Shown piece by piece: positions 1,952-64,000 of a stretch of DNA of 64,000 bases. The stretch is from Candidatus Moraniibacteriota bacterium (GTDB lineage: Bacteria > Patescibacteriota > Minisyncoccia > Moranbacterales > UBA1568), in NCBI GenBank assembly GCA_016699425.1, contig CP064975.1, positions 789,698 to 853,697 of the forward strand. Reading direction: 5' to 3'. The number at the start of each line of letters is the position of its first letter. Within the stretch, counting starts at the first letter, position 1. The notes beneath the pieces are model-generated. The model was not told the DNA's origin. It was given only the letters and a program-made list of their open reading frames with translations, and did no database searches. The translations under genes were made by a program, and so were the position numbers.

Positions 1952-2644
1952 ATGCCTGAACCAACCTGGCCAAAATCTGAAAAACCAGAGGAAGAACCGA
2001 GGGAGAAGCTCTCTGAAACCTTGCTTGGATATGACAATCCAAAAATGGCAGAAATCTTAGCCGAGACCGAGGAGGTCTTCAGTCACAATATAAGTGCTTC
2101 TAATGGAATGACGCATCTTTACGGCGATCTTGCCTACCCCCTTATGCCGCCAGAATTTGTGAGATTGCTCGATACCATAAAAGGAGAGGTACAGGGTGGA
2201 ATATTCGTAGATGCCGGATGCGGGAGTTCACCTGATGTACGAGCCGCCGGAAGACTCGGGATCAATAGAGTGGTAGGCATAGATCTTTTGTCACGGCCGG
2301 CCGATAGTCCTGACCCAAAAATTCAGCCCTATACTGAAGATGAGTTCTGGCAAGGGAAGACGATCCTTAAGATTGGAGATGAGATTACCAGAGGATTGGC
2401 TCGTATGAAATCGAGCATGGTTAATATAGTGCATATGCGAGCCCTGGATATTTTTTCAGGGGATGAAGAGCTTTGCCTCGATGAAATACACAGGGTATTA
2501 AAGGATGGTGGATATTTTATCCTCGACAGTAGCGGGAACTCTATATTCCGTAAGTTCGACCTGAATAAATTCGAGGAAGTTATCAATTATGGCGATGAAA
2601 TGAGAATACTCAAGAAAAAGACAATGGAAGATTTGGTTAAATAA
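1952..2644 (+). CDS. class I SAM-dependent methyltransferase (putative)
   Basis: motif I-like IFVDAGCGSS and post-I VLKDGGYFIL; start codon uncertain. Confidence 0.55.
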   Translation: MPEPTWPKSEKPEEEPREKLSETLLGYDNPKMAEILAETEEVFSHNISASNGMTHLYGDLAYPLMPPEFVRLLDTIKGEVQGGIFVDAGCGSSPDVRAAGRLGINRVVGIDLLSRPADSPDPKIQPYTEDEFWQGKTILKIGDEITRGLARMKSSMVNIVHMRALDIFSGDEELCLDEIHRVLKDGGYFILDSSGNSIFRKFDLNKFEEVINYGDEMRILKKKTMEDLVK

Positions 2645-2670
2645 TATTAATAAATCGAGAAAAATACACT

Positions 2671-3108
2671 ATGGCAACAATCAATCCTTATATTAACTTC
2701 AACGGAAATGCCGAAGAAGCGTTTACGTTTTACAAATCCATTTTCGGTGGAGAATTCGCTGGTATTACTCGTTTCAAAGACATAGCAAGCGCCGAGTTCC
2801 CAGTACCCGAAAATGAGGCAAATAAAATAATGCGCATTGCTCTGCCTATCGGCAAAAACATGTTAATTGCCAATGACGTTCCAGAAAGCATGGGACGGGT
2901 GAGCGAAAACGAGAACAGATCCAAAATAGCAGTCAGCGCAGAAAGCAAAGAAGAGGCCGATAGAATATGGAGCGGCCTTTCGGCAGGTGGGGCAGTCGAG
3001 ATGCCGATGGCAGAAAGCCCTTGGGGCACCTATTTTGCAATGTTTAGAGACAAATATGGCATTGAATGGACCGTGGAATTTGATCCAAAAAATAACGGAA
3101 AAAAATAA
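2671..3108 (+). CDS. VOC/glyoxalase superfamily protein (PhnB-like)
   Basis: N-terminus INPYINFNGNAEEAFTFYKSIFGG typical of PhnB/VOC family. Confidence 0.65.
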   Translation: MATINPYINFNGNAEEAFTFYKSIFGGEFAGITRFKDIASAEFPVPENEANKIMRIALPIGKNMLIANDVPESMGRVSENENRSKIAVSAESKEEADRIWSGLSAGGAVEMPMAESPWGTYFAMFRDKYGIEWTVEFDPKNNGKK

Positions 3109-3987: not shown

Positions 3988-4536
3988 ATGGATGAATCCA
4001 AAGATCCACTATTAAGTGAGCAAGAGGGTGTCTCAACAGGAGGATATGAATACTCCTTTGTTGCTATTCCCAAGCGCCACATAGTGATCGTCGCTGCCTA
4101 TATCCAACTGATATGGAAAGTGAAGAATTTTGAGAAAACAGTTTCCCCTGAGCAGGTGCTCGAAAATACAAAATCCCTTTTCCGGGAGAACCAAGATAGG
4201 ATTTCCGATAGTCTGTGGAAGGAACACTGCGCCGGATCTTTGAGAGAACTATTAGATTGCCACATGTCAGATCTGCCCTATGCACTTGCATCTCTACCTC
4301 CTCAAACGAACAGTACCGGGCAGCGCGAGCAGATATATGCGGACCTACAGTTATATAAGGAGTTTCTCAATGACCTCGCTCATTTGCAGGGAAACTCTGC
4401 TCTCAAGAATGCACGGTTGATACTGGGAGATACTACCCTGGCAGACATCGACGACAGAGTATTTGATAAAATATGCACACAGTTCATCGACCTGCTCTAT
4501 AGTCTCTTCAGACAACATTGTATGAAAGGCGACTAA
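3988..4536 (+). CDS. hypothetical protein (first gene of AT-rich island operon)
   Basis: 182-aa ORF, 4-nt gap to next ORF, visibly lower G+C than flanks. Confidence 0.5.
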   Translation: MDESKDPLLSEQEGVSTGGYEYSFVAIPKRHIVIVAAYIQLIWKVKNFEKTVSPEQVLENTKSLFRENQDRISDSLWKEHCAGSLRELLDCHMSDLPYALASLPPQTNSTGQREQIYADLQLYKEFLNDLAHLQGNSALKNARLILGDTTLADIDDRVFDKICTQFIDLLYSLFRQHCMKGD

Positions 4537-4540
4537 TACT

Positions 4541-7500
4541 ATGAACCAAATCGATTTACATAAAAAAATTGACGAATTAGTAAAAAAATCACCCCTTCTG
4601 GAAATGAAGGAGGAAGTTTCTGTATTCATGGAAAATGAGGATGCGAAAAGCTATTTTTATTCTACTGCAGATGAAAAATGGCTTCCTTGGCTTTGGAAAA
4701 ATTCATTTTTGGAATCAATAAAGGAAAAAGCTCAAGACTTAGATCGCTACAGTTACCGTACCCCAGAGCTGAACTACTTGGCCCGTATGGCTGAAAAGGA
4801 TCCAAAAACGGTAACTGATATTTTATTGGATACCCCGATTTCTTCTAGTAATTTCAATCCGGAAGTAGTTGATAGATTCTTTTGGATAGCTAGTGAGTTA
4901 CCAGCGGAAGAGCTGACAAGAGTAATTCCAAAAATGCGCGATGAGAAATGGATCTTCCTCATGAACAATTTTAATAGTCACGTTGGCTTCAAATTTGAAA
5001 GCATGTTTAAGACACTAAGCAAGGCAGGCGACGATAAGCATGCCCTTATTCTTAGTGATATACTCTTTGAAGTTCGGAAAAAAGATGCCCCAGAAGAAGA
5101 CAAGGACTTGTGGACCGAGAACCCATTTTACTTTAAAGACCTGGAATATTCTGGGGTATTCGATTTCCTTGAAGAAGTAAATGAAAAATATCTTAGTGAG
5201 TCGCTATCCTTAGTATCGAGTACGATGGGAAAGGTGATTCTGTTTAATGCAGATAAGCGTGAGCCTCGAAGCGCATTTTCTGTTGGTGATGGCCTGGCTT
5301 TTTACGAAATAGACTTTTTCTCGCTGGAAACAGGTCAGAAAAAACATACATCTTATCGTGATGATGTACGAGACCTCGTAGCGACCATGAAAACATTGGC
5401 AATACGCGCCTTTAAAGAGAGCTGTCCTGATAAGGAAAAAACGCAAGCTATTTTTGATGCTTACATAGCTACACTACCAGATAGTCAGGCTATGTGGCGC
5501 TTTCGCCTATTCGTTTATAGCCTCTGTCCAGATATTTTTAGTAAAGATATCAAGAAGGCCCTACTCCGTCTTTCAGAGGTCGAAAATCCGCACGATATTA
5601 CTATGGGAGCAGAATATCAACAACTCCTAAGACGGAGTTTAGATTTGTTTTCTGATCCAGAAAAGCAGAAGTTTAAAGAGGTTATTCTAGGAACTTTTTC
5701 AGACTTAGGTAATGAAAAACTTTCCAAGGGGGATGTATTTGGTATATTTTCTATCATTCAAAATTGGCTGACTGAAGAGGAGAAGGAGAAGGCTGAAAAA
5801 TATATTGGCCAAACACTGAAATCAGATTTCCAGCCAGAGCCCATGATTGGAAAAATGCGAGGTGGTTACGTTCAAGAGAAATCAGTGGTGTCTTCTGAAG
5901 AGTTGGCAGCTATGAGTGTGGTTGATATTTCTAAGAAACTGCAGAAAGATTGGATACCAAAAAATTTAACACGCGAAGAATATACTGAGAGCTCTATTAT
6001 TGAATATAGTGCAGAAGGCTTAGGAAAGGCGATCCAGGATGACATGACTAAGAGATTCCAAGATTACATCCAGAACGCCCCTCTGTTCTTTGAACGGGAA
6101 TTATTGGATGCGCACTATACTTACATCTTTGTACGAGGTGTCTATGAGGTTATTAAAAATACGAAAGGAAGTTTGGATATTGAGTGGGAAGGGCTATTCG
6201 GTCTAATTTCGTCAGTCATTACTTCATTTGAAAAGATTCCTGTAGAAGATGGAAAGAGAAAAAGAGATGGGGGGCACGTTTGGCTGGCTGGCTGGGATGC
6301 GGTGCATAACGCCATGGCAGAGGTAATGGAAGTGCTCCTTAAACAACGTGAGGATAAGACGGATGTAATCGAATTCAAAAAGTACAGAGATAAAATCCTA
6401 GTAATAATTAGATACCTTTTGGCGCATCCAAATCCTGATTTGGAAAGCGAGGTGTGCACGCCTCGATCAAATCAATCTTCAACTGGGAAGGGCCAATACG
6501 ATTGTTCCGATCCTTTCACTCACGCAATTAACTCTGTTCGTGGAAAAGCTTTTGAAGCATTAATAAGCTTTGTCTATAAGGACGGAGAACAATTTCCGAA
6601 AGAAGCTCCTGTAAAAGTTTCTTCTGATGTCGTAGCTATATACGAAGAACTTCTTGGTCGGGAAAATACCCGGGCAATTATGTTTTTGTTTGGGCATTAC
6701 TTGCCCTCTATCTACTTCCGTGACAAAAAATGGACTAGGACTTTATTCGATAAGTTATTCGGATTCGATACGCCTAAGCGAGACCTTGCTCTTGCGGCAT
6801 GGGAAGGCTACTTAACGAATAATCTTTACAACGAGATCTTCCAAGAATTGGAACCTTATTACTCTCGTGCTATTGAATTAAAACGAGAAGATTATACTCC
6901 ACGAGAGTATTTCAAGGATCTTGATGAAGTATTAGCAACGCATGTCGCGCTAGCTTTTATGCATTTTCCCCAGTTCACTTATGAATCAGCGCTTTTTAAA
7001 AAGTTCTGGCAAGAAAAGAATCTTAAAAGACAGACTGAATTTATCTCATTTATCGGTCGTTATTCTATATCTCGAGACCAGGCTAAGGAATGGTTAAAGA
7101 AAAGTAAAATAGATTCTAAGAAGTTGGAAAGTTTTTGGGATTGGATTTTAGAGGCACCAGTAGATCCAAAGGTGTTTGAATCATTTGGATTTTGGATGGA
7201 TGCCGAATGGAATGTTTTTGATCCTGCTTGGCAAGCTGAGCGCACACGAAAGACGCTAGAAAAAACAGGTGGTGCAATAGAGTGGAATCATAATCTTCAA
7301 GAATCGCTCCCTATCTTCGCAAAGGTATCCCCTCAAGACACTCTAACAATACTGAAATTGCATCTAGAATATGTTGCTAAGAAAGCTCCGCAACAGGGTT
7401 GGTTTCATCTTGATGACAAAGTTCAAGAAGTATTTCAGTTCCTCTACGAAAATCCTGAGACTAAAAAAGGAACTTACAACCTCATAGATATTTTATTGCC

Positions 7501-7549
7501 GCTTAGTAATGGAATGTTCTGGAAACTTAAAGATATCGTGAAGGAGTAA
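4541..7549 (+). CDS. large hypothetical protein (1002 aa), no recognisable catalytic motifs
   Basis: 3-kb uninterrupted ORF, AT-rich codon usage, followed by strong intrinsic terminator; no Walker/nuclease motifs found by eye. Confidence 0.7.
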   Translation: MNQIDLHKKIDELVKKSPLLEMKEEVSVFMENEDAKSYFYSTADEKWLPWLWKNSFLESIKEKAQDLDRYSYRTPELNYLARMAEKDPKTVTDILLDTPISSSNFNPEVVDRFFWIASELPAEELTRVIPKMRDEKWIFLMNNFNSHVGFKFESMFKTLSKAGDDKHALILSDILFEVRKKDAPEEDKDLWTENPFYFKDLEYSGVFDFLEEVNEKYLSESLSLVSSTMGKVILFNADKREPRSAFSVGDGLAFYEIDFFSLETGQKKHTSYRDDVRDLVATMKTLAIRAFKESCPDKEKTQAIFDAYIATLPDSQAMWRFRLFVYSLCPDIFSKDIKKALLRLSEVENPHDITMGAEYQQLLRRSLDLFSDPEKQKFKEVILGTFSDLGNEKLSKGDVFGIFSIIQNWLTEEEKEKAEKYIGQTLKSDFQPEPMIGKMRGGYVQEKSVVSSEELAAMSVVDISKKLQKDWIPKNLTREEYTESSIIEYSAEGLGKAIQDDMTKRFQDYIQNAPLFFERELLDAHYTYIFVRGVYEVIKNTKGSLDIEWEGLFGLISSVITSFEKIPVEDGKRKRDGGHVWLAGWDAVHNAMAEVMEVLLKQREDKTDVIEFKKYRDKILVIIRYLLAHPNPDLESEVCTPRSNQSSTGKGQYDCSDPFTHAINSVRGKAFEALISFVYKDGEQFPKEAPVKVSSDVVAIYEELLGRENTRAIMFLFGHYLPSIYFRDKKWTRTLFDKLFGFDTPKRDLALAAWEGYLTNNLYNEIFQELEPYYSRAIELKREDYTPREYFKDLDEVLATHVALAFMHFPQFTYESALFKKFWQEKNLKRQTEFISFIGRYSISRDQAKEWLKKSKIDSKKLESFWDWILEAPVDPKVFESFGFWMDAEWNVFDPAWQAERTRKTLEKTGGAIEWNHNLQESLPIFAKVSPQDTLTILKLHLEYVAKKAPQQGWFHLDDKVQEVFQFLYENPETKKGTYNLIDILLPLSNGMFWKLKDIVKE

Positions 7550-7561
7550 TTTTGGAATAGT

Positions 7562-7587
7562 AAAAACCGCCTGTGAGGGCGGTTTTT
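7562..7587. terminator. bidirectional rho-independent terminator
   Basis: AAAAACCGCC-TGTGAG-GGCGGTTTTT hairpin between convergent ORFs. Confidence 0.6.
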
Positions 7588-7597
7588 ACTAAGTTAC

Positions 7598-7933
7598 TTA
7601 TTGGATATTCACGAGTGTCTTACAGCCCGTATCCATAGTGCCCGTTACTTTCGCTTCTTGTTCTAGGAACTCACAGGAAGCTTTCTTGTCGAAGTTCTGC
7701 CAGTTAATCTTTCCATGGGTTGGCTTATCGATGAAGTAGGTAAGCACAACATCGTTTTTCTTGTTTCCATAACGATCAGTTGTTTCGGCATAGTACCAGA
7801 CAATGACATCGTAGGCCTGGATACTCGGAACATCGTACACCGTTTGGAAGATGGAGGTGGAAAGTTCTCCTGTATCCCTGAGAAGCGAGTTTTTACTGTA
7901 GAAGCTTTTGAGGTCAACTTTAACCGTCACCAT
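7598..7933 (-). CDS. hypothetical protein (111 aa)
   Basis: ORF convergent with 1002-aa gene, shares terminator. Confidence 0.4.
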   Translation of the reverse strand: MVTVKVDLKSFYSKNSLLRDTGELSTSIFQTVYDVPSIQAYDVIVWYYAETTDRYGNKKNDVVLTYFIDKPTHGKINWQNFDKKASCEFLEQEAKVTGTMDTGCKTLVNIQ

Positions 7934-8247
7934 TTTGGTATCTTTGGGACGAGAAAGCCAGCTATACCAAGCTTGGGTTTGAGAAGCCGGTTCTAGAGAA
8001 GGATGTTATCCTCGGATTCGGCCTCCAAGATGCCAAATCAGGCCGAGGAGAGTATGAGAGCCATCATGAACTCCAGAAACTTCTCAAAGATGCTCTAAGC
8101 CCTACAAATTGGCGTCTCATGAGCGATGGAGTCACTTATCGCCTTGGATTCCTCCAAGGGCGCTTAAGGGGCGTAGAAGGTGAGGAAAAGCTCAAAGACC
8201 TCCTAGAATCCGAGCAAAAGAAAAGAGACAAGAAAGTAATTAAATAG
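7924..8247 (+). pseudogene. start-less ORF remnant (about 107 codons, no in-frame ATG/GTG/TTG before codon 66)
   Basis: open frame from stop at 7921 to TAG 8245-8247 translating ...VILGFGLQDAKSGRGEYESHHELQKLLKDALSPTNWRL...; only in-frame start gives 42 aa. Confidence 0.3.
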
Positions 8248-30503: not shown

Positions 30504-31124
30504 CTATGCTGCTTTCGATCTAAGAATCTTACTCTCTCCATCTTTCACCAAAACGGCCTCGTCGTCAGCCAAAGGAATGAATTGATATTCTTTATACTCT
30601 CTCTGCATTACCTCAAGCTCATCTCTCTGCTCTTCTACGAAGTGAGGCCAGGGCACAAAGTTGACTAACGACAATCCCTCAAACGAAGTTAGTCCAGGCG
30701 CTCTCCCTGGATCATCGGCATCTTTTGCCAGTTCGACCGTGGGTCCCGCGAGAAGTGCGCCCGCACTCGAACCAATGTATACCGCTCCTTCCTGGACTCT
30801 TTTCTTCACAACCTCATTCAGTCCACTCTTTCTTACCTCCTGAAGAAGATAAAAAGTATTCCCTCCGCTAAAGAAAATTACATCTGCTTTACTTATTTTT
30901 GGCATCCACACTTCCTTAGCAACAGAGGCGACATCTATCACTGCTACTTCTTGAAAAATTTTCCGACAAGCTTCAATATCAGCTTGAAGCCAAGGTTTCG
31001 GACCGTCTTCTACGGTTGCAGCTGTATCAATAAAGATCAGGTTCATTTCGCTCGCAGGTCTTGGAAGTGCAGACACGAGAAGATTCAAAGTTTTCGAGGC
31101 AACAGAGGTGAGATAAAGAAGCAT
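30504..31124 (-). CDS. peptidase S51 (PepE-like) / type-1 glutamine amidotransferase-like protein
   Basis: FFSGGNTFYLL and IGSSAGA blocks. Confidence 0.65.
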   Translation of the reverse strand: MLLYLTSVASKTLNLLVSALPRPASEMNLIFIDTAATVEDGPKPWLQADIEACRKIFQEVAVIDVASVAKEVWMPKISKADVIFFSGGNTFYLLQEVRKSGLNEVVKKRVQEGAVYIGSSAGALLAGPTVELAKDADDPGRAPGLTSFEGLSLVNFVPWPHFVEEQRDELEVMQREYKEYQFIPLADDEAVLVKDGESKILRSKAA

Positions 31125-31244
31125 AAATAGTCGTTAATCTTACGCCAGTATACCAGGTCCGAATGTCATATCCGGAGTACGAAAAAGAGGCTCAGATAAG
31201 CCTCGGATTTCGGTGCTCCCATCGATGGAAGAATCTGGACTCGA

Positions 31245-31580
31245 TTATTTCGGCGCATTTAAATCGTTAAGCATGGCCTTGAGCAGCTGCTGTGTATCGT
31301 CTTGTGTTTTACCTACTTTCAATAATATTTTTCCTAAATAATCCAAACCTCCCCCAACCACCACTTGGTTATAAGATGTTGTATCGCCAAATGGACCAGG
31401 GCCAGCTCCTTTTTTGGCAAGACTAATAATATCCTGGACATCCTCGATTTCTTCCGATGTGAGAGAATTGGCATGTGCCATTATTGACTCCAACACCAAT
31501 TCTATATGGCGATGCCTATTAGGCACAGCCTCTTTCTCTTTAATCTCTTTTTGATGGAACTCTGGAGTCTCTGGACCCAT
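31245..31580 (-). CDS. hypothetical protein
   Basis: 111-aa ORF. Confidence 0.4.
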   Translation of the reverse strand: MGPETPEFHQKEIKEKEAVPNRHRHIELVLESIMAHANSLTSEEIEDVQDIISLAKKGAGPGPFGDTTSYNQVVVGGGLDYLGKILLKVGKTQDDTQQLLKAMLNDLNAPK

Positions 31581-57684: not shown

Positions 57685-58413
57685 TCATGTGGACGCATTC
57701 AGCATGCGCTGCGCCGCCATCCTGACCGCTGTCGGTAGCATCAGCCATTCATACGGCAGCACGATTTCCCGCAGCTTGAGCGCAGCCGCCCTGATGTCAT
57801 ATGTCCCATCGAGGACACCCTGCAACAGCGTAGACGGAATCTCCACTGCTCCCATCAGAAGTGGTGGACCATCGCCCGGTCTCTCCGTGACCTCATGGAC
57901 GGTCGGATAGGTGAAAAAACGGTCGCACCCGAGGCTTTTCTTGCCGCGCCGGATGTGATCGAGCTCCGCCTCGAGAACGTGCTCGTGCACCCGTAGGCCA
58001 TGCATCCCCTGACCCCCGTGAGCATCGATGTCTGCCGGGTGGATGTTGTACATTGGCAGCCCGCATATTGGATAGGCAATGGAGGAGTCAAATGGCACGA
58101 TCACATTGCAGCCAACAAGAAACACGAGGCGACATTGACGGGCCTGAGCTACCCTCGAAAGCTCATTGAGAAATCCGCGTTTTTCGTACGTATACTGAAA
58201 CGACGTACTCCCTACTTCGATGACTACGCTGGGATAGTCGAGATCATTCGCCTTTTCAATGCAACCCGCACCCGGTTTGGTACTCACGAGCACGATCTGC
58301 CCGACTTCCGGGATCTGACCGGCGTGATGAGCCTTCATGATGGAAAACATACCGGTACCATTGCCGGAGGCGATGACCATCAGGTTCACTTCGCCACTTG
58401 TACGCTTGGGCAT
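57685..58413 (-). CDS. formyltransferase family protein (PurN-like)
   Basis: VIASGNGTG N-terminal and NIHP...TVHEVTERPGDGP blocks. Confidence 0.55.
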   Translation of the reverse strand: MPKRTSGEVNLMVIASGNGTGMFSIMKAHHAGQIPEVGQIVLVSTKPGAGCIEKANDLDYPSVVIEVGSTSFQYTYEKRGFLNELSRVAQARQCRLVFLVGCNVIVPFDSSIAYPICGLPMYNIHPADIDAHGGQGMHGLRVHEHVLEAELDHIRRGKKSLGCDRFFTYPTVHEVTERPGDGPPLLMGAVEIPSTLLQGVLDGTYDIRAAALKLREIVLPYEWLMLPTAVRMAAQRMLNAST

Positions 58414-58577
58414 GGGAGCCCTCCTCTCTTGTAATCACAACACTCTATAAACCGGCCTCCCATGAGGAAGGCCACCAAAGAACTAGTCACCGAGTATCGC
58501 AAATTCGGACGTCCCAGTCAAATGGAAATCACCAAGGATCACATCCGATGCGGCTTTCTATTTTTTCCGAGCCGTAT

Positions 58578-58606
58578 TTGACGAGGGAACAAATGTTCCC
58601 TATAAT
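58578..58606 (+). promoter_or_regulatory. sigma70 promoter TTGACG-N17-TATAAT with embedded LexA (Cheo-type) box GGAACAAATGTTCC
   Basis: -35 58578-58583, -10 58601-58606, perfect inverted repeat GAAC-N4-GTTC at 58587-58598 between them. Confidence 0.55.
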
Positions 58607-58625: not shown

Positions 58626-59198
58626 ATGGAAACAGCCACCGCCCTCGCCAAAATCCAAGCCTTCTATGAAAAGAGGTGGCGCATGCCGACCGTGCGCGAA
58701 GTCATGTCGCTCATCCGCACTCGATCGATGAAGCAGACAACCGCCCTCATCGAGGGACTCGTCGAGTCCGGTGCGATCGAACGCGACAAGAATGGCAAAC
58801 TCCTCCCGAGTCACCTCTTCGGCAGCATCCGTAAGCTCGGACTCGTCGAAGCTGGTTTCCCCTCGCCCGCCGAAGAGGAGCTCCTCGATACTCTGACGCT
58901 CGACGAGTGGCTCATCCGCCGGCGCGAAGCGACTTACATGCTCGAGATCAAGGGCGAATCGATGATCAATGCCGGTATCCGACCCGGCGACACCGCCCTC
59001 GTCGAACGCGGCCGCGAACCAAAACATGGTGACATCGTCATCGCAGAGGTCGACGGCAAGTGGACGATGAAGTACTACCACGTCGAGTCGCGAGGACGTA
59101 TCGCGCTCGTCCCAGCCAATCCGAAATTCCCGACCATCTACCCGCAAGAAGAACTCCACATTGAGGCAATCGTCACGGCCATCATCCGGAAATACTAA
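58626..59198 (+). CDS. second LexA-like repressor (wHTH + S24 peptidase)
   Basis: IKGESMINAGI (Ser) and KHGDIVIAEVDGKWTMKYY (Lys); start 58626 after AAGGA; 58593 alternative. Confidence 0.8.
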   Translation: METATALAKIQAFYEKRWRMPTVREVMSLIRTRSMKQTTALIEGLVESGAIERDKNGKLLPSHLFGSIRKLGLVEAGFPSPAEEELLDTLTLDEWLIRRREATYMLEIKGESMINAGIRPGDTALVERGREPKHGDIVIAEVDGKWTMKYYHVESRGRIALVPANPKFPTIYPQEELHIEAIVTAIIRKY

Positions 59199-59202
59199 CC
59201 CT

Positions 59203-60513
59203 ATGTCCGCCCCCATCGTTCTGGGGAGATTCCCCCGTGCCATCCTCCACATCGATGGTGATGCTTTTTTCGCGTCATGCGAGCAAGCAAGGAATCCCGA
59301 ACTCCGCGGAAAGCCGGTCATCTGCGGAGCCGAGCGCGGCATCGCCGCGTCGATGAGCTATGAAGCCAAAGCCAAGGGCGTCACCCGTGCCATGCGCCTC
59401 TTCGAAATAAAGAAACTCTGTCCGGACGCGGTCGTCCTCCCCTCCGACTACGAGACGTATTCGCTCCTCTCCAAACGCTTCTACGAAGTCGTCCGCCGCT
59501 ACACATCCGATGTCGAGGAATACGGCATCGACGAATGCTTTGCCGATATCACCGGTTTGCAGCGACCGCACAAGAAAAGCTATGCCGCGATTGCCGCAGC
59601 GATCCAGTCGGACCTCCAGCGCGAGCTCGGCTTCACCTTTTCCATCGGCCTCGCCTCGACCAAAGTCCTCGCCAAGATCGGCTCGAAGTGGGCGAAGCCC
59701 CATGGCCTGACCGCTATCCCGAACAAATATATCCACCGCTACCTCGAGACGCACCCCGCGGGAAATGTCTGGGGCATCGGTCCGCAGACGACCGCGCTCC
59801 TCCAGAAATTCGGTATTCATACCGCGCTCGACTTCGCCCACCGCGACGAAGCCTGGGTGAAACACTACTGCTCGAAACCGTTCCAAGAGATCTGGCACGA
59901 GCTCCGGGGAAAGAGCGTCATGCCGCTCGCGACCGCGCCACGGACCGACCACTCCTCGGTGCAAAAGATGAAGACCTTCACCCCGCCGTCAAACGACCCG
60001 CGCTTCGTCTTTGCCCAGCTCGCGAAAAACATCGAGAGCGCCTGCATGCGCGCGCGGCAGTACCGGCTCGAGGCCAAGCGGGTGTACATCCTGCTCCGGA
60101 CGCAATCGTTCGAGCATCACTCGACCGAGCTCACGCTCTCGCGGCCGACCAATTTCGCCCACGAACTCCTCGACATCGCCCGTCCGGCCTTCGCCGAACT
60201 CTTCCGCCCCGGCACCTTCTACCGCGCGACCATGGTCACGCTCGCCGAGCTCACCGTCCCCGAATCGCAGCCTGATCTCTTCGGTGGATCACTCCGAGTG
60301 GACAACTATCGCCGGCTCTACGAGGGCATCGACCAGGTCCGCGCCAAGTACGGCAAGCACACCATCCATTTCGGCTCGTCATTCATGGCGCACGACGGCG
60401 CACAGCACACGGGCGACCGCGCCGACACCCCCGAGCGCCAGCGCCATCTCCTCAAGGGCGAGACCAAACGCCGCCGCCTCGGCATCCCCATGTTCACCGC
60501 CGAACTCTCCTAA
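59203..60513 (+). CDS. dinB: Y-family DNA polymerase (DinB/UmuC-like)
   Basis: ILHIDGDAFFASCE and GIDECFADITG catalytic motifs; starts 4 nt after LexA-like stop. Confidence 0.85.
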   Translation: MSAPIVLGRFPRAILHIDGDAFFASCEQARNPELRGKPVICGAERGIAASMSYEAKAKGVTRAMRLFEIKKLCPDAVVLPSDYETYSLLSKRFYEVVRRYTSDVEEYGIDECFADITGLQRPHKKSYAAIAAAIQSDLQRELGFTFSIGLASTKVLAKIGSKWAKPHGLTAIPNKYIHRYLETHPAGNVWGIGPQTTALLQKFGIHTALDFAHRDEAWVKHYCSKPFQEIWHELRGKSVMPLATAPRTDHSSVQKMKTFTPPSNDPRFVFAQLAKNIESACMRARQYRLEAKRVYILLRTQSFEHHSTELTLSRPTNFAHELLDIARPAFAELFRPGTFYRATMVTLAELTVPESQPDLFGGSLRVDNYRRLYEGIDQVRAKYGKHTIHFGSSFMAHDGAQHTGDRADTPERQRHLLKGETKRRRLGIPMFTAELS

Positions 60514-60515
60514 CC

Positions 60516-60561
60516 AAAAAAAACCGCCCCGGTTCCCTCCAAGGCGGCTTTCAATTTTTCC
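60516..60561. repeat. 46-nt terminator-like direct repeat A (AAAAAAAACCGCCCCGGTTCCCTCCAAGGCGGCTTTCAATTTTTCC)
   Basis: 39/46 identical to 63187-63232; hairpin CCGCC..GGCGG flanked by A- and T-tracts. Confidence 0.5.
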
Positions 60562-60567
60562 TTTTCA

Positions 60568-61440
60568 TTAGCTTTTCTGAATCAAGCTAACTAGTGCTTT
60601 TACGGAGGACAGCTCTGGCTCCTCAATTTTTTTTGCGTCAATAATCCGCGGAGGTTTAGTATCGTCACTAAAAGTAACATAATAGTAATTGCCCCTATCT
60701 ATAATTCCATGACCAATTTCTTGAGAAGTTGCTGCTTTATATTTCCCTTCAATTGTTTTTTCTTTAATTACCTCAAAACGAACTTCATAATCTGAATCTC
60801 TCCTTTTCCCAAGCGGTGCATGGGAACCAATCCTGATAAGATGCCGCTGACCAACCTCCGTGAAAGGAATGAACTGCGATCCCCTCCCAAGGAGAAAGTT
60901 CCCCTGCTTGTAAGGATTAAGATTAAAGTTCACTAATTTTGAAACGCTTTTGGCCGCCTTTTTTGCCGACCTATCGACAATCCTTGTCTCCTCAGTGCTT
61001 TTTCCCTCCACCCAATGAAGATTAAATCCAAATCGAATTTTCTTTTTTTCTCTTAAGTAATCCTTCCATAATCCCTGATGCTTAACATCATAACCATCCC
61101 GAGTCTTCCATTTATCTTTGCCGAATGGTTTAGCCCACCTATATACGCTACTATTTGCGCTATCAACTACATACCTAGAATCACTAAGAACAGTAATCGA
61201 AGTAATTCCAAGTTGAGAGATTTCCTTGGTATTCCTATTTATCCACTTCAGCGCATTAACCAATGCCTGTAATTCCATCGCCCCACTTGTTCCGCCAGAA
61301 TAAGGAAACTTAATCTCCCTATTTGGTAGATTAAGAAACTTGGGATACACGACAAGCATCGCACATCCAACCATTTCACCTGGATTGGTGATTGCTGATC
61401 CGTCTATATAAATCACCAGTTCATCTTCGCTATCCAACAT
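60568..61440 (-). CDS. RNase H (type 1) domain protein with 140-aa uncharacterised C-terminal domain
   Basis: DEDD residues in IYIDGS / MELQAL / LSDSRY / IVDRSA; start at ATG 61440; AT-rich. Confidence 0.7.
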   Translation of the reverse strand: MLDSEDELVIYIDGSAITNPGEMVGCAMLVVYPKFLNLPNREIKFPYSGGTSGAMELQALVNALKWINRNTKEISQLGITSITVLSDSRYVVDSANSSVYRWAKPFGKDKWKTRDGYDVKHQGLWKDYLREKKKIRFGFNLHWVEGKSTEETRIVDRSAKKAAKSVSKLVNFNLNPYKQGNFLLGRGSQFIPFTEVGQRHLIRIGSHAPLGKRRDSDYEVRFEVIKEKTIEGKYKAATSQEIGHGIIDRGNYYYVTFSDDTKPPRIIDAKKIEEPELSSVKALVSLIQKS

Positions 61441-61463
61441 GTCGAGCCAATATAGTTTGGGAT

Positions 61464-61545
61464 GCACCAAGACGGGAATCGAACCCGTACGATCCAAAGA
61501 TCATCTTCTTGTAGAATTTCAAAAAAATTAGAAACTCTAGTAGGA
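61464..61545 (-). other. tRNA-like T-arm/acceptor fragment (GTACGGGTTCGATTCCCGTCTTGGTGC) plus long AT-rich hairpin; not a complete cloverleaf by eye
   Basis: perfect T-arm ACGGG-TTCGATT-CCCGT on minus strand; no matching 5' acceptor strand found. Confidence 0.3.
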
Positions 61546-61630
61546 AGATGTGTCTACCATTCCACCACTCGAGCAAAGCTTTTACCCATAATACTATCTC
61601 CAGCTAAATCAATATTAAGCAGAAAAAGAG

Positions 61631-62206
61631 TCAGGACAGTATCTTTTCGTTACGCTTTTGAAGTAAATATCCCGCTATACCTAAAATAATTGGCATGGCT
61701 AGTCCCATAATTACAATTGTATCCACTCGTTCATTTATTCGAACATACGCCCCTTCTAAATCCTCAACACTTTCATTCAAAACATCCTGTTTATCCTTCA
61801 ATGTTCTTGAGGTTATTGCCTTATCAGTATCATAAAGTATTGTCTCTTCGATTGAGTTCTGCCTTGCCTCCAAACCAGTTACTCGCTGATTTACCAAGGC
61901 AAGTGATGTGCCCTGGTTATTTTTCAGCACCTCCCGCAATGATAACAGCTCTTTCTCAAGAGCCAGGTTTTTCTTATTTAGATTTTCAATTTTTTCCAAG
62001 ATCTCATCCTTATTCCTTATCAAAGAGAATGGGAAACTATCAATTCTTGTCTGATAGAGTAGGTAGCCAATAGAAAGGACGGCGTAGACTATAGTGAGAC
62101 TGAGAACGAGACTCTGTTTTCTCTTCCTTCTTTCTTCTAAAGACTTCTGAAGAGCCAAGTACTCAGAGAAAGACTCAGATAGCTTTTTTTGTGAGGAATA
62201 GGCCAT
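61631..62206 (-). CDS. hypothetical coiled-coil membrane protein
   Basis: 2 TM helices flanking coiled-coil; AT-rich. Confidence 0.5.
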   Translation of the reverse strand: MAYSSQKKLSESFSEYLALQKSLEERRKRKQSLVLSLTIVYAVLSIGYLLYQTRIDSFPFSLIRNKDEILEKIENLNKKNLALEKELLSLREVLKNNQGTSLALVNQRVTGLEARQNSIEETILYDTDKAITSRTLKDKQDVLNESVEDLEGAYVRINERVDTIVIMGLAMPIILGIAGYLLQKRNEKILS

Positions 62207-62209
62207 ACC

Positions 62210-62416
62210 TTATTTCTTTGGGAAAGCTTCATCAATCGCTTCAGCAACAATATCGAGCTCCTTTTCCAGTTCAGTTGAAATCTCCTCCTCAGTAACAATT
62301 TTTTTTTCAATAAGGATCTTCTCTATTGCATTCAATCTCGCATTTCTCGCAAAATCAAAGGCCGATCTTGGACCAACCTTTGAATTTATTCTATCTAAAA
62401 ATTCTTGCAGCTTCAT
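62210..62416 (-). CDS. small hypothetical protein (68 aa)
   Basis: 3-nt gap to downstream ORF. Confidence 0.4.
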   Translation of the reverse strand: MKLQEFLDRINSKVGPRSAFDFARNARLNAIEKILIEKKIVTEEEISTELEKELDIVAEAIDEAFPKK

Positions 62417-62665
62417 ATCTTTTCTTTTGTGATAAAAACCCGGCCGAAACCGTGAGTCCTAAGTAACTTCCTTGTAGAGGGAAGATAGTCTAAAAACCTA
62501 GTTCGGTCAAGCATACAAAAAACCAGTCTTGCGACTGGTTTCGTGCCTTACACGGTATCAGAAGGAAATTCCTTGATCCTTGGATATTCGTGCGGAGAGT
62601 GCTGATCATATAAAGTGGGACCTCTTCACGGAGTCGCCCACCAAAGGGCTGTCCCACCGACAATA

Positions 62666-63136
62666 ATCAATACTCTTGAGAGAGAAGAAGTCTGGGTGTG
62701 ACCATGACTTCTCCGAGGAAGAAAAAGTCCGACGAGAGCAAGCGGCGCAGAGGGTAACGCGTCGCAGGTGGAGGAGAACGGAGAAGCTCTTCGTCGGCCC
62801 TGACGACACTGGATGCCAGGGGAAATTTTCAGGAGCGCATTCGCTCTCTCAAGAGAACTGATATTCGATTGTAAACTGCATCAATACTCTTGAGAGAGAA
62901 GGAATCGAAGCGGTTGCGACGATTCCCTCTCGAGTGGGTTGCCGATCACAGATTGCCTGCGACCGGGCCCCCGGCGCCTTGCCCGCAGATACCGGGAAGT
63001 ATGCTGCAAGCCTCAGTCTGCCCGAGAGTGGTAGGGTCCCCCTGGGTTGGGGTGGTGAGAGGGACCGCTCGGAGCGACGACGACCTTGCGCCGGAAAGAA
63101 CAAAAGAGAACCCGAGGCTCTCTCAAGAATATTGAT
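62666..63136 (+). ncRNA. candidate structured RNA, possibly RNase P RNA (rnpB), built from two tandem inverted-repeat-bracketed units
   Basis: 5' TCAATACTC/TTGAGAGAG pairs with 3' CTCTCTCAA/GAATATTGA (P1/P2-like); P3-like hairpin GAAGTC..GACTTC; GAGGAAGAAAAAGTCCGAC (cf. GAGGAAAGUCCGGGC); GGGTAACGC; GGTGAGAGGGAC; AGAGAACCCGAGG before 3' stem (cf. ACAGAACCCGGCUUA); no credible ORFs. Confidence 0.35.
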
Positions 63137-63186
63137 CTGTGAAATAGCGTAGGGAGAGTATCGCAAATCCGGCTATCTAAGTCAAC

Positions 63187-63232
63187 AAAAAAAACCACCC
63201 AGGATCACTCCGAGGCGGCTTTCAATTTTTCC
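63187..63232. repeat. 46-nt terminator-like direct repeat B
   Basis: AAAAAAAACCACCCAGGATCACTCCGAGGCGGCTTTCAATTTTTCC, last 20 nt identical to repeat A. Confidence 0.5.
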
Positions 63233-63261
63233 GTATCCCGCGAACACGAGACGATCAAGCG

Positions 63262-64000
63262 CTATTTCCTCCCAATCAGAAGCATGACCAACTTCACCAT
63301 TTTTTCCTTGTCTCTCGGATGGCTTTCAGCAATGAGGAGCGTGATCGCCGTGAGCGCCTCGGGCGTAAGGCGTGTGGCATCGAGTAGCCGAGTCATGTTC
63401 AGAAACCACACGAAAGCATACGCACCCGTGCGTTTGTTCCCATCCACAAATGGATGATTTTTCACGATGAAATAGAGAAGATGCGCTGCCTTGGCTTCGA
63501 CACTCGGGTAGACATCTCGGCCACCGATCGCCTGCATCACATTTCCGACAATCCCCTCCAGTCCTTGTTTGCCCCGCTCCTGTGCGAACAGTTCTGTGGC
63601 TTCATGTTTCTTCAGTAGTTCGGCTTTCAGGATACTGACGGCCTCGGCCAATCGAGCGCCGGTCAAGATCACCTTCTTCTTTGTCGGCTTGGCAACATCA
63701 AACACCTCCCGGTCATAAGCATCGAGAGATACCCAGGTATCGGCAAACGATCGCACGAGCTCGAGGATACTCCCCGTATCGGTTTTCATCCCGGCTGGCA
63801 GCAAAGCCCTCACGTCAGCGACGGCTTGCGAGAACGCCTCATAATTCTTCCCGATCCGTGAACGATTGATAGTGTAACCCTCCACGAGATGACGGCGCAG
63901 CACACCGGTCGCCCACCTCCGAAACTGGGTCGCTTTCTTGGAATTAACACGGTAACCCACAGAAATGATCACATCCAGGTTGAAATACTCTACTTGGTAG
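63262..64000 (-). CDS. RhuM-family / Fic-DOC domain protein, 5'-partial (continues past window end)
   Basis: ...YQVEYFNLDVIISVGYRVNSKKATQFRRWAT RhuM core; HPFVDGNKRTGA Fic motif; frame open to position 64000. Confidence 0.75.
   Translation of the reverse strand, partial: YQVEYFNLDVIISVGYRVNSKKATQFRRWATGVLRRHLVEGYTINRSRIGKNYEAFSQAVADVRALLPAGMKTDTGSILELVRSFADTWVSLDAYDREVFDVAKPTKKKVILTGARLAEAVSILKAELLKKHEATELFAQERGKQGLEGIVGNVMQAIGGRDVYPSVEAKAAHLLYFIVKNHPFVDGNKRTGAYAFVWFLNMTRLLDATRLTPEALTAITLLIAESHPRDKEKMVKLVMLLIGRK

Follow-up and report, generated by a model that had tools for sequence, protein, structure and literature searches.

A reused terminator-promoter module probably punctuates a variable locus of a Moraniibacteriota genome

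Near the right end of a 64,000-nt stretch of the genome of Candidatus Moraniibacteriota bacterium (contig CP064975.1 of assembly GCA_016699425.1, positions 789,698 to 853,697), here called the window and numbered from its first letter, a repeat of about 46 nt occurs in three copies, which we name A, B and C. These are probably homologous copies of a short intergenic terminator module that belongs to a Moranbacteria-like lineage of the candidate phyla radiation (CPR; Patescibacteria) and punctuates a variable locus. They go beyond ordinary terminators in being homologous and unusually conserved, in being fused in many cases to one promoter and in being confined to a variable locus beside an RNA linked to the 16S rRNA gene. 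An earlier note on this DNA had described only A and B, together with the approximately 2.6 kb enclosed by them, and had considered them to be either terminators of one family or att-like borders of an insertion.

In the arrangement that we propose, the core of approximately 46 nt, comprising an A-tract, a GC-rich hairpin and a T-tract, would be an efficient stop to minus-strand transcription and a weak one to plus-strand transcription. The complete module would run from the core directly into a promoter close to consensus (TTGACT-17-GATACT) and then a short leader, whereby the next gene is restarted. Copy A would thereby end a gene for an RNase H fusion protein and close the convergent polymerase gene, and copy B would serve both as the terminator of a RhuM/Fic gene and as the promoter of structured RNA units. 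Such modules would punctuate a variable region beside the conserved structured RNA, the genomes differing in the genes found between the terminator of that RNA and the first module copy and also between successive copies, and we infer that recombination within the conserved modules, or next to them, turns the cargo over. A reduced CPR genome would then reuse one terminator-promoter module to join up a variable region, which would also aid the annotation of operons and their boundaries.

Three copies of one repeat

Copies A (60516-60561), B (63187-63232) and C (58524-58572) are all minus-strand elements of one orientation and lie inside 4.7 kb of the window. The coordinates and common orientation reported before for A and B were exact, and their last 20 nt are indeed identical. 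The two are, however, the same at 41 of 46 positions and not at 39, with mismatches at positions 11, 15, 18, 21 and 26, and the gap-free match between them reaches 52 nt at 87% identity. Neither do they form a unique pair. Copy C, detected with nhmmer (E 1.1e-12), is a decayed relative with one indel, a lost T-tract and no stable hairpin, and beyond these three no copy was found at nhmmer E<0.01 anywhere in the 64 kb. When the 19-nt core is searched for with up to three mismatches, three occurrences are found in the window, and 0.01 would be expected from dinucleotide shuffles of it.

Copy A occupies the space between convergent genes, 6 nt past the stop of the RNase H-fusion gene (60568, minus strand) and 2 nt past the stop of the Y-family polymerase gene (plus strand), and consists of the terminator only. 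Copy B lies 29 nt past the stop of the minus-strand RhuM/Fic gene (63262), which was correctly placed just outside the interval between A and B and is recognized by Pfam, and B is fused to a promoter at 63157-63185. Copy C is situated between divergent promoters and follows no gene end; the same is true of the first copy in the related contig L064 (L064-1).

Terminator and promoter signals

Both A and B show the features of an intrinsic terminator, that is, a hairpin and a U-tract directly past a stop codon of the same strand. The minus-strand hairpin of A has 14 bp (-22.1 kcal/mol, z -3.55) and that of B 11+3 bp (-19.5 kcal/mol, z -2.34), and each is followed by T8; a consensus scan also recognizes A as a terminator. 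The plus-strand hairpins are weak (-11.5 kcal/mol for A and -8.3 kcal/mol for B), because G-U pairs turn into C-A on that strand. The suggestion that each repeat is a bidirectional terminator is consequently borne out as far as both are hairpins with A/T tracts, but termination is predicted to be strongly asymmetric, strong on the minus strand and weak on the plus strand. Copy C is unfolded (z +0.5 and -0.8), its T-tract is gone, and it fails the hairpin test for an intrinsic terminator.

Copies B and C share approximately 30 further nt on one side, which correspond to a minus-strand promoter, TTGACT-17-GATACT with the TG of an extended -10 element; over 80 nt the regions 63156-63233 and 58492-58569 are 79% identical. 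The promoter half of module B (63157-63185, minus strand) reads into the structured RNA units, and its homolog in module C (58493-58521, minus strand) precedes a formyltransferase-family gene. The full form with terminator, promoter and leader is common to B, C, the first copies of contigs L124 and L134 (L124-1, L134-1) and the copy of L131, and A represents the terminator part alone. From these signals we infer that transcription is terminated at A and B and that the B and C modules have promoter activity. The promoter of the formyltransferase gene recurs together with its approximately 90-nt 5' leader (58434-58521) at positions 2500-2600 of L124, 82% identical and in front of an unrelated gene of 168 amino acids (aa). 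As unrelated genes share them, promoter-leader modules are evidently reused between genes, like terminators.

The module family in related contigs

Altogether 12 copies are known, three in the window and nine in four related metagenomic contigs: two in L064, two in L124, four in L134 (within 2.8 kb) and one in L131. The nine are each found at a gene junction, and every one of the 12 adjoins a gene end or a promoter. The alternative that A and B are terminators of one family has held up, given their location past minus-strand stops, the hairpins with T8 and the 12-member family at gene junctions. The consensus of the aligned copies is GGAAAAATTGAAAGCCGCCTCGGAGTGATCCTTGGCGGTTTTT. In the alignment the hairpin is paired in 85.7% of the cells, with no covariation beyond that of shuffles. 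Since the sequence is shared without covariation, the copies are homologous by descent and not convergent hairpins. Copy B is 95% identical to L064 5391-5432 and to L124 3179-3220.

L064, L131 and L134 were recovered by pattern searches. In genome contigs a 17-nt degenerate core gave at least 120 matches, mostly due to chance, and L064 was the only real one among the matches listed. The metagenome search with a 22-nt pattern returned nine loci, of which seven are chance matches in one protein-coding family and two, L131 and L134, are real. No match to the repeat, nor to the inverted repeat of the RNA units described below, was found in the viral collection, and BLAST of 57-64 kb against plasmids and phages yielded only an 84-nt match to RhuM/Fic. 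The earlier note had proposed that many dispersed copies at ordinary gene ends would indicate a generic terminator family. Copies do occur at ordinary gene ends, such as those of the M23 peptidase and formyltransferase genes in L134, but they are few and clustered at this locus.

L064 is labelled as Bdellovibrionales. The 3' part of its 16S rRNA gene (7397-8000) takes up 604 nt for 428 model positions, that is, it carries an insertion, and such insertions are typical of CPR rRNA genes. The label is probably wrong, because L064 combines this CPR-type 16S insertion with DNA that is 95-96% identical to the Moraniibacteriota window.

The copies resemble intrinsic (rho-independent), partly bidirectional terminators in having a GC-rich hairpin with an upstream A-tract and a downstream T-tract a few bases past stop codons, and in that A closes convergent genes. 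They differ from ordinary terminators, which are not homologous between genes, in that the 12 copies share the loop and the flanks at 80-95%, display no compensatory variation and in many cases share one promoter. Several observations weigh against regarding the copies as terminator modules and no more. Copy B is 92-95% identical to the second copies of L064, L124 and L134 (L064-2, L124-2, L134-2), all with unrelated flanks, which exceeds the similarity of the surrounding DNA; for comparison, the tail of the structured RNA in L134 is only 73% identical to that of the window. The hairpin loop, GGAGTGATCC, is also kept, and a plain terminator needs no conserved loop. Copies C and L064-1 have divergent promoters on either side, a setting that calls for no terminator. 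Finally, it is odd for a general-purpose terminator that all three window copies fall inside 4.7 kb and that the remaining 59 kb have none.

A structured RNA beside a variable slot

The segment between A and B had been described as AT-rich throughout. This applies to 60.55-62.5 kb, where the GC percentage is approximately 37-42 (the window mean is 52%), but the AT-rich part ends at about 62.5 kb and is followed by 52-58% GC over 62.5-63.15 kb. As expected, the RNase H-fusion gene and two small open reading frames (ORFs) are found within the interval. Its GC-richer part encodes a structured RNA of approximately 630 nt (62520-63150, minus strand), which lies between the promoter of B and a terminator of its own and comprises two units followed by a conserved tail. 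The fold is far more stable than that of shuffled sequence on the minus strand (z -9.5 vs. -2.2 on the plus strand).

The tandem units, 62666-62862 and 62880-63136 (minus strand), are each closed by 19-nt inverted repeats, ATCAATAYTCTTGAGAGAG and CTCTCTCAAGAGTATTGAT, and contain a covarying subterminal hairpin and a variable interior. In seven units of four genomes, six of the 12 base pairs of the subterminal hairpin have changed on both sides, 92.9% of the cells pair, and none of 500 shuffles reaches the score. The interiors vary both in length (approximately 160-390 nt) and in sequence, with the exception of unit 3 of L124 and the unit of L134, which are 73% identical. The 19-bp helices resemble stems that are processed by RNase III. 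The terminator hairpin (62520-62545) and the conserved tail of approximately 120 nt together occupy 62520-62665 on the minus strand. They are conserved in both L064 and L134, and the stem of the terminator shows compensatory changes in L134.

Homologous RNA regions are present in L064 (6595-7117), L124 (1-926) and L134 (119-601), and both 62509-62692 and the RNA units are conserved in all three contigs. Window positions 62515-62692 are 96% identical to L064 6595-6772 over 178 nt (95% over 185 nt for 62509-62692), and 62480-62690 are 73% identical to L134 426-636. L064 includes the 16S rRNA gene, directly downstream of which the structured RNA is located, and the stretch of L134 begins in the homologous spacer downstream of 16S. 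Read in the orientation of the terminators, the order in L064 and L134 is the same: 16S or its spacer, inverted-repeat unit, tail of approximately 120 nt, terminator, AT-rich cargo and repeat copy.

The region had previously been taken for RNase P-like. This does not agree with the Rfam searches, in which 62440-63180 gave no RNase P match on either strand, whether at the gathering score or at E<=10, and the homologous regions of L064, L124 and L134 gave none at E<=1. Readings of 62.4-63.2 kb as RNase P, 5S, 6S, tmRNA or a group I intron were rejected alike, no Rfam family matching at E<=10.

The cargo that follows the RNA terminator differs from genome to genome. In L064 the slot holds the Shedu gene sduA (E 6e-111) and in L134 a gene for an Mrr_cat nuclease-like protein. 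In L124 only a tRNA-like gene and the RNase H-fusion gene are present, the latter with a product 87% identical to that of the window. The window has these two genes and in addition an 886-bp block (61621-62506) with genes for proteins of 68 and 191 aa and their promoter, which is missing from the closely related and otherwise collinear L124. At the corresponding site of L124 the RNA terminator abuts the promoter of the tRNA-like gene, and both junctions fall at a CTTGA/TTGA promoter -35 motif.

The interval between A and B is thus composite: its right third is native, conserved RNA and its left two thirds are variable, foreign, AT-rich cargo, and it is therefore not one insertion. The locus itself is of greater interest than the repeats. 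It constitutes a hotspot next to an uncatalogued, 16S-linked RNA, and depending on the genome its cargo is Shedu, an Mrr-like nuclease, or a tRNA-Leu-like gene together with an RNase HI-OB gene. It is similar to hotspots of defence and other variable genes and to so-called minimal mobile elements, which are exchanged by flanking homology: a fixed slot with conserved flanks (the RNA terminator and a repeat copy) accommodates differing accessory genes, here Shedu and the Mrr-like nuclease, with RhuM/Fic (PDC-S23) in the next slot. Unlike in defence hotspots, the window cargo includes no recognized defence system, and one of the conserved flanks is itself a repeated module.

Alternative origins of the repeats

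It is possible, although we regard it as rather doubtful, that the copies are recombination sites which delimit exchangeable cassettes, either as attC- or att-like sites or as RecA homology anchors of 46-95 nt used after DNA uptake. A gene set would enter at a resident copy and end up between two direct copies. The clearest candidate, rather than the interval between A and B, is the pair of LexA-like and polymerase genes reaching from C to A, which lies on the opposite strand exactly between these direct copies, has a GC percentage of 60-64 and its own promoter. Likewise, a homologous opposite-strand gene, the product of which starts with MSNPFE, is flanked by two direct copies in both L064 and L134 (the products are 48% identical). 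C and L064-1 serve no gene end and C is in decay, as would be expected of a by-product of insertion. The homology blocks are sharp-edged, with unrelated flanks on both sides, the copies are more conserved, loop included, than the flanking DNA, and GC jumps at the copies, for example from 62% to 40% at A. In contig L121 homologous RNase H-fusion, S24 and IMS genes adjoin a large serine recombinase. If the modules were recombination anchors, they would provide a simple mechanism of accessory gene turnover where recognizable mobile elements are few.

Replacement of a co-directional gene lying between two modules already in place would, however, leave the same pattern. No recombinase or integrase was detected with Pfam in any ORF of 57.7-64 kb (the window ends at 64000), in the 10 largest ORFs of 45.5-55.8 kb or in the other AT-rich islands of the window, and no pair of an empty and a filled site was found between near-identical genomes. 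L134 was considered as an empty site for the polymerase pair. This reading is weakened, because the module is followed by a formyltransferase-family gene in both L134 and the window and these two genes are barely similar. With a similarity this remote, the comparison of L134 with the window is no true presence/absence test. Any cassette event would have to be old, because the copies are 80-90% and not fully identical.

As to integrons, the likeness lies in imperfect palindromes of one orientation, by which unrelated variable units, often of one gene each, are set apart. No integron-type core motifs (RYYYAAC/GTTRRRY, that is, R''/R') were seen by eye in the 12-copy alignment, and neither an IntI-type recombinase nor attI nor Pc was found in the scans of the window or in the examined parts of L064, L124 and L134. 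Unlike in integron cassettes, the genes between the copies are on either strand, several of them have their own promoters, and the copies are more alike than attC sites usually are.

A more far-reaching version, which we consider unlikely, is a CPR cassette platform that is independent of recombinases or uses an unknown one. Modules of approximately 46-95 nt would act as portable gene-capture junctions beside the 16S-linked RNA, and the array of inverted-repeat units would be a second cassette system at the level of RNA. The cargo of such a platform would comprise defence systems, an SOS polymerase pair and the RNase HI-OB gene with a possibly chargeable, non-decoding tRNA-Leu-like RNA.

There is little to recommend the explanation that the 46-mer is a miniature mobile palindrome of the REP/BIME, Correia or MITE kind, mobilized in trans by a transposase and a terminator only incidentally. 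REP/BIME elements of enterobacteria and Correia elements (CREE) of Neisseria are scattered chromosome-wide in tens to hundreds of copies of either orientation, and those of the Correia family, which can supply promoters, are marked by terminal inverted repeats and a duplicated TA. Common to them and to our repeat are short, repeated intergenic palindromes at gene ends that are presumably able to terminate transcription. In accord with mobility, the repeat is a short imperfect palindrome, intergenic and at gene 3' ends, multiple near-identical copies with sharp boundaries exist within and between genomes, and the sequence is conserved without covariation. Dispersal of the REP/BIME or MITE type is nevertheless not seen in the window. 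There are few copies, three in 64 kb and all within 4.7 kb of a single locus, and every copy of a locus has the same direction, although insertion in either direction is usual for mobile palindromes. Neither a target-site duplication nor a RAYT/IS200-like gene was seen, the viral collection had no match, and the true copies from the metagenome search are limited to two contigs, L131 and L134.

A single integrated element of 2.6 kb with A as attL and B as attR, the other suggestion of the earlier note, is highly improbable: the direct repeats of approximately 46 nt and the AT-rich, compositionally foreign part of the interval speak for it, but that part stops 0.7 kb short of B, the interval holds RNA genes that in relatives are conserved and belong to the chromosome, the cargo varies piecemeal and independently of B (L124 lacks 61621-62506 only), copy C is situated beyond the interval, the promoter module contiguous with B is also used elsewhere, and there is no integrase among the ORFs scanned.

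A tRNA-Leu-like gene in the cargo

Within the cargo, next to the RNase HI-OB gene, lies a tRNA-Leu(UAA)-like gene (61463-61574, minus strand), which has a long variable arm and is preceded by a promoter of its own. Its L124 ortholog is at 965-1077; the gene is conserved beside the RNase HI-OB gene in two related genomes, and its promoter is present in both the window and L124. It had earlier been described as a tRNA-like fragment; tRNA-like it is, but not a fragment, since the tRNA-Leu-like gene has its full length and is changed in the anticodon arm. The acceptor, D, long variable and T arms are near-identical to those of tRNA-Leu(taa) genes from large phage contigs of IMG/VR (L140-L144). The anticodon stem is capped by an extended hairpin of 35-37 nt where a 7-nt loop would be expected. 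With the Rfam tRNA model the window gene scores 27.7 bits (threshold 29) and the L124 gene 42.2 bits.

As a regular tRNA, with a cloverleaf, a 7-nt anticodon loop and a readable anticodon, 61463-61574 failed the test. In the whole 64 kb no tRNA gene was found by ARAGORN and no Rfam family at its gathering score; ARAGORN calls the gene in intron mode only, and the anticodons disagree, Ser(act) in the window vs. Asp(gtc) in L124. Group I introns have been reported in tRNAs of Patescibacteria (PMC13011429). An intron was rejected here: the insert, of approximately 30 nt, is far too short for a group I intron, no bulge-helix-bulge is present, and the excisions tried restore no Leu anticodon loop. 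The RNA may be a pseudo-tRNA, may be chargeable without decoding or may act as a signal for processing. Leucyl-tRNA synthetase does not read the anticodon, and for this reason the tRNA-Leu-like RNA is perhaps chargeable yet non-decoding.

Other genes of the locus

The formyltransferase-family gene (57685-58413, minus strand; 242 aa, Pfam Formyl_trans_N E 1e-6) has a ribosome-binding site and an ATG start and would be driven by the promoter of copy C. On the other side of C, the promoter of the LexA-like gene (58578-58606, plus strand; TTGACG-17-TATAAT, 11 of 12 matches to consensus) overlaps a palindrome, GAACAAATGTTC, at 58587-58598. This GAAC-N4-GTTC box presumably represents the Cheo-type SOS box pattern, and its position at a near-consensus promoter suggests autoregulation of the following gene pair. 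The pair consists of a LexA/UmuD-like S24 peptidase (58626-59198, plus strand; Pfam Peptidase_S24 E 1.7e-25), the start of which was placed according to the promoter, and a Y-family, DinB/UmuC-like DNA polymerase (59203-60513, plus strand; Pfam IMS E 8e-48 and IMS_C; 60-64% GC).

The AT-rich gene convergent with this pair (60568-61440, minus strand) encodes a protein of 290 aa in which RNase HI is fused to a C-terminal OB-fold. It is 100% identical to a Candidatus Moraniibacteriota protein with the locus tag IPJ68_04440, encoded on a contig of 1.2 Mb, which places the genome in the CPR. The fusion family is rare, with 19 homologs among 5.8 billion proteins. In L121 and L122 the RNase HI-OB gene is found beside genes for SRAP, an S24 peptidase, a Y-family polymerase and a large serine recombinase.

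The two small AT-rich genes (61631-62416, minus strand), predicted as ORFs, encode the proteins of 191 aa, with two predicted transmembrane segments and a coiled coil, and of 68 aa, neither of which has a significant Pfam, PADLOC or PHROG match; a promoter-like site is located at 62482-62510 (minus strand; TTGACC-17-TATCTT). The possibility that the AT-rich cargo is a known defence system was rejected, PADLOC giving no match for the RNase H-fusion, 191-aa and 68-aa proteins.

The RhuM/Fic gene (63262-63972, minus strand; Pfam Virulence_RhuM and Fic) matches PDC-S23, a candidate defence family of PADLOC, with E 1e-77. Its ORF begins at approximately position 82-90 of the PDC-S23 models, which have 312-331 positions, a stop codon lies just upstream, and the window ends 28 nt further on; the gene may be 5'-truncated, lacking the N-terminal part, or frameshifted. 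Three other AT-rich islands of the window (2301-2700, 4201-7600 and 30801-31400) contain no repeat copy and no recombinase; one of them holds an ORF of 1002 aa (4541-7549) with no Pfam match. The region at 44-56 kb is core chromosome, with genes for EF-G, S7, S12, an M50 peptidase, DsbB and ApbE.

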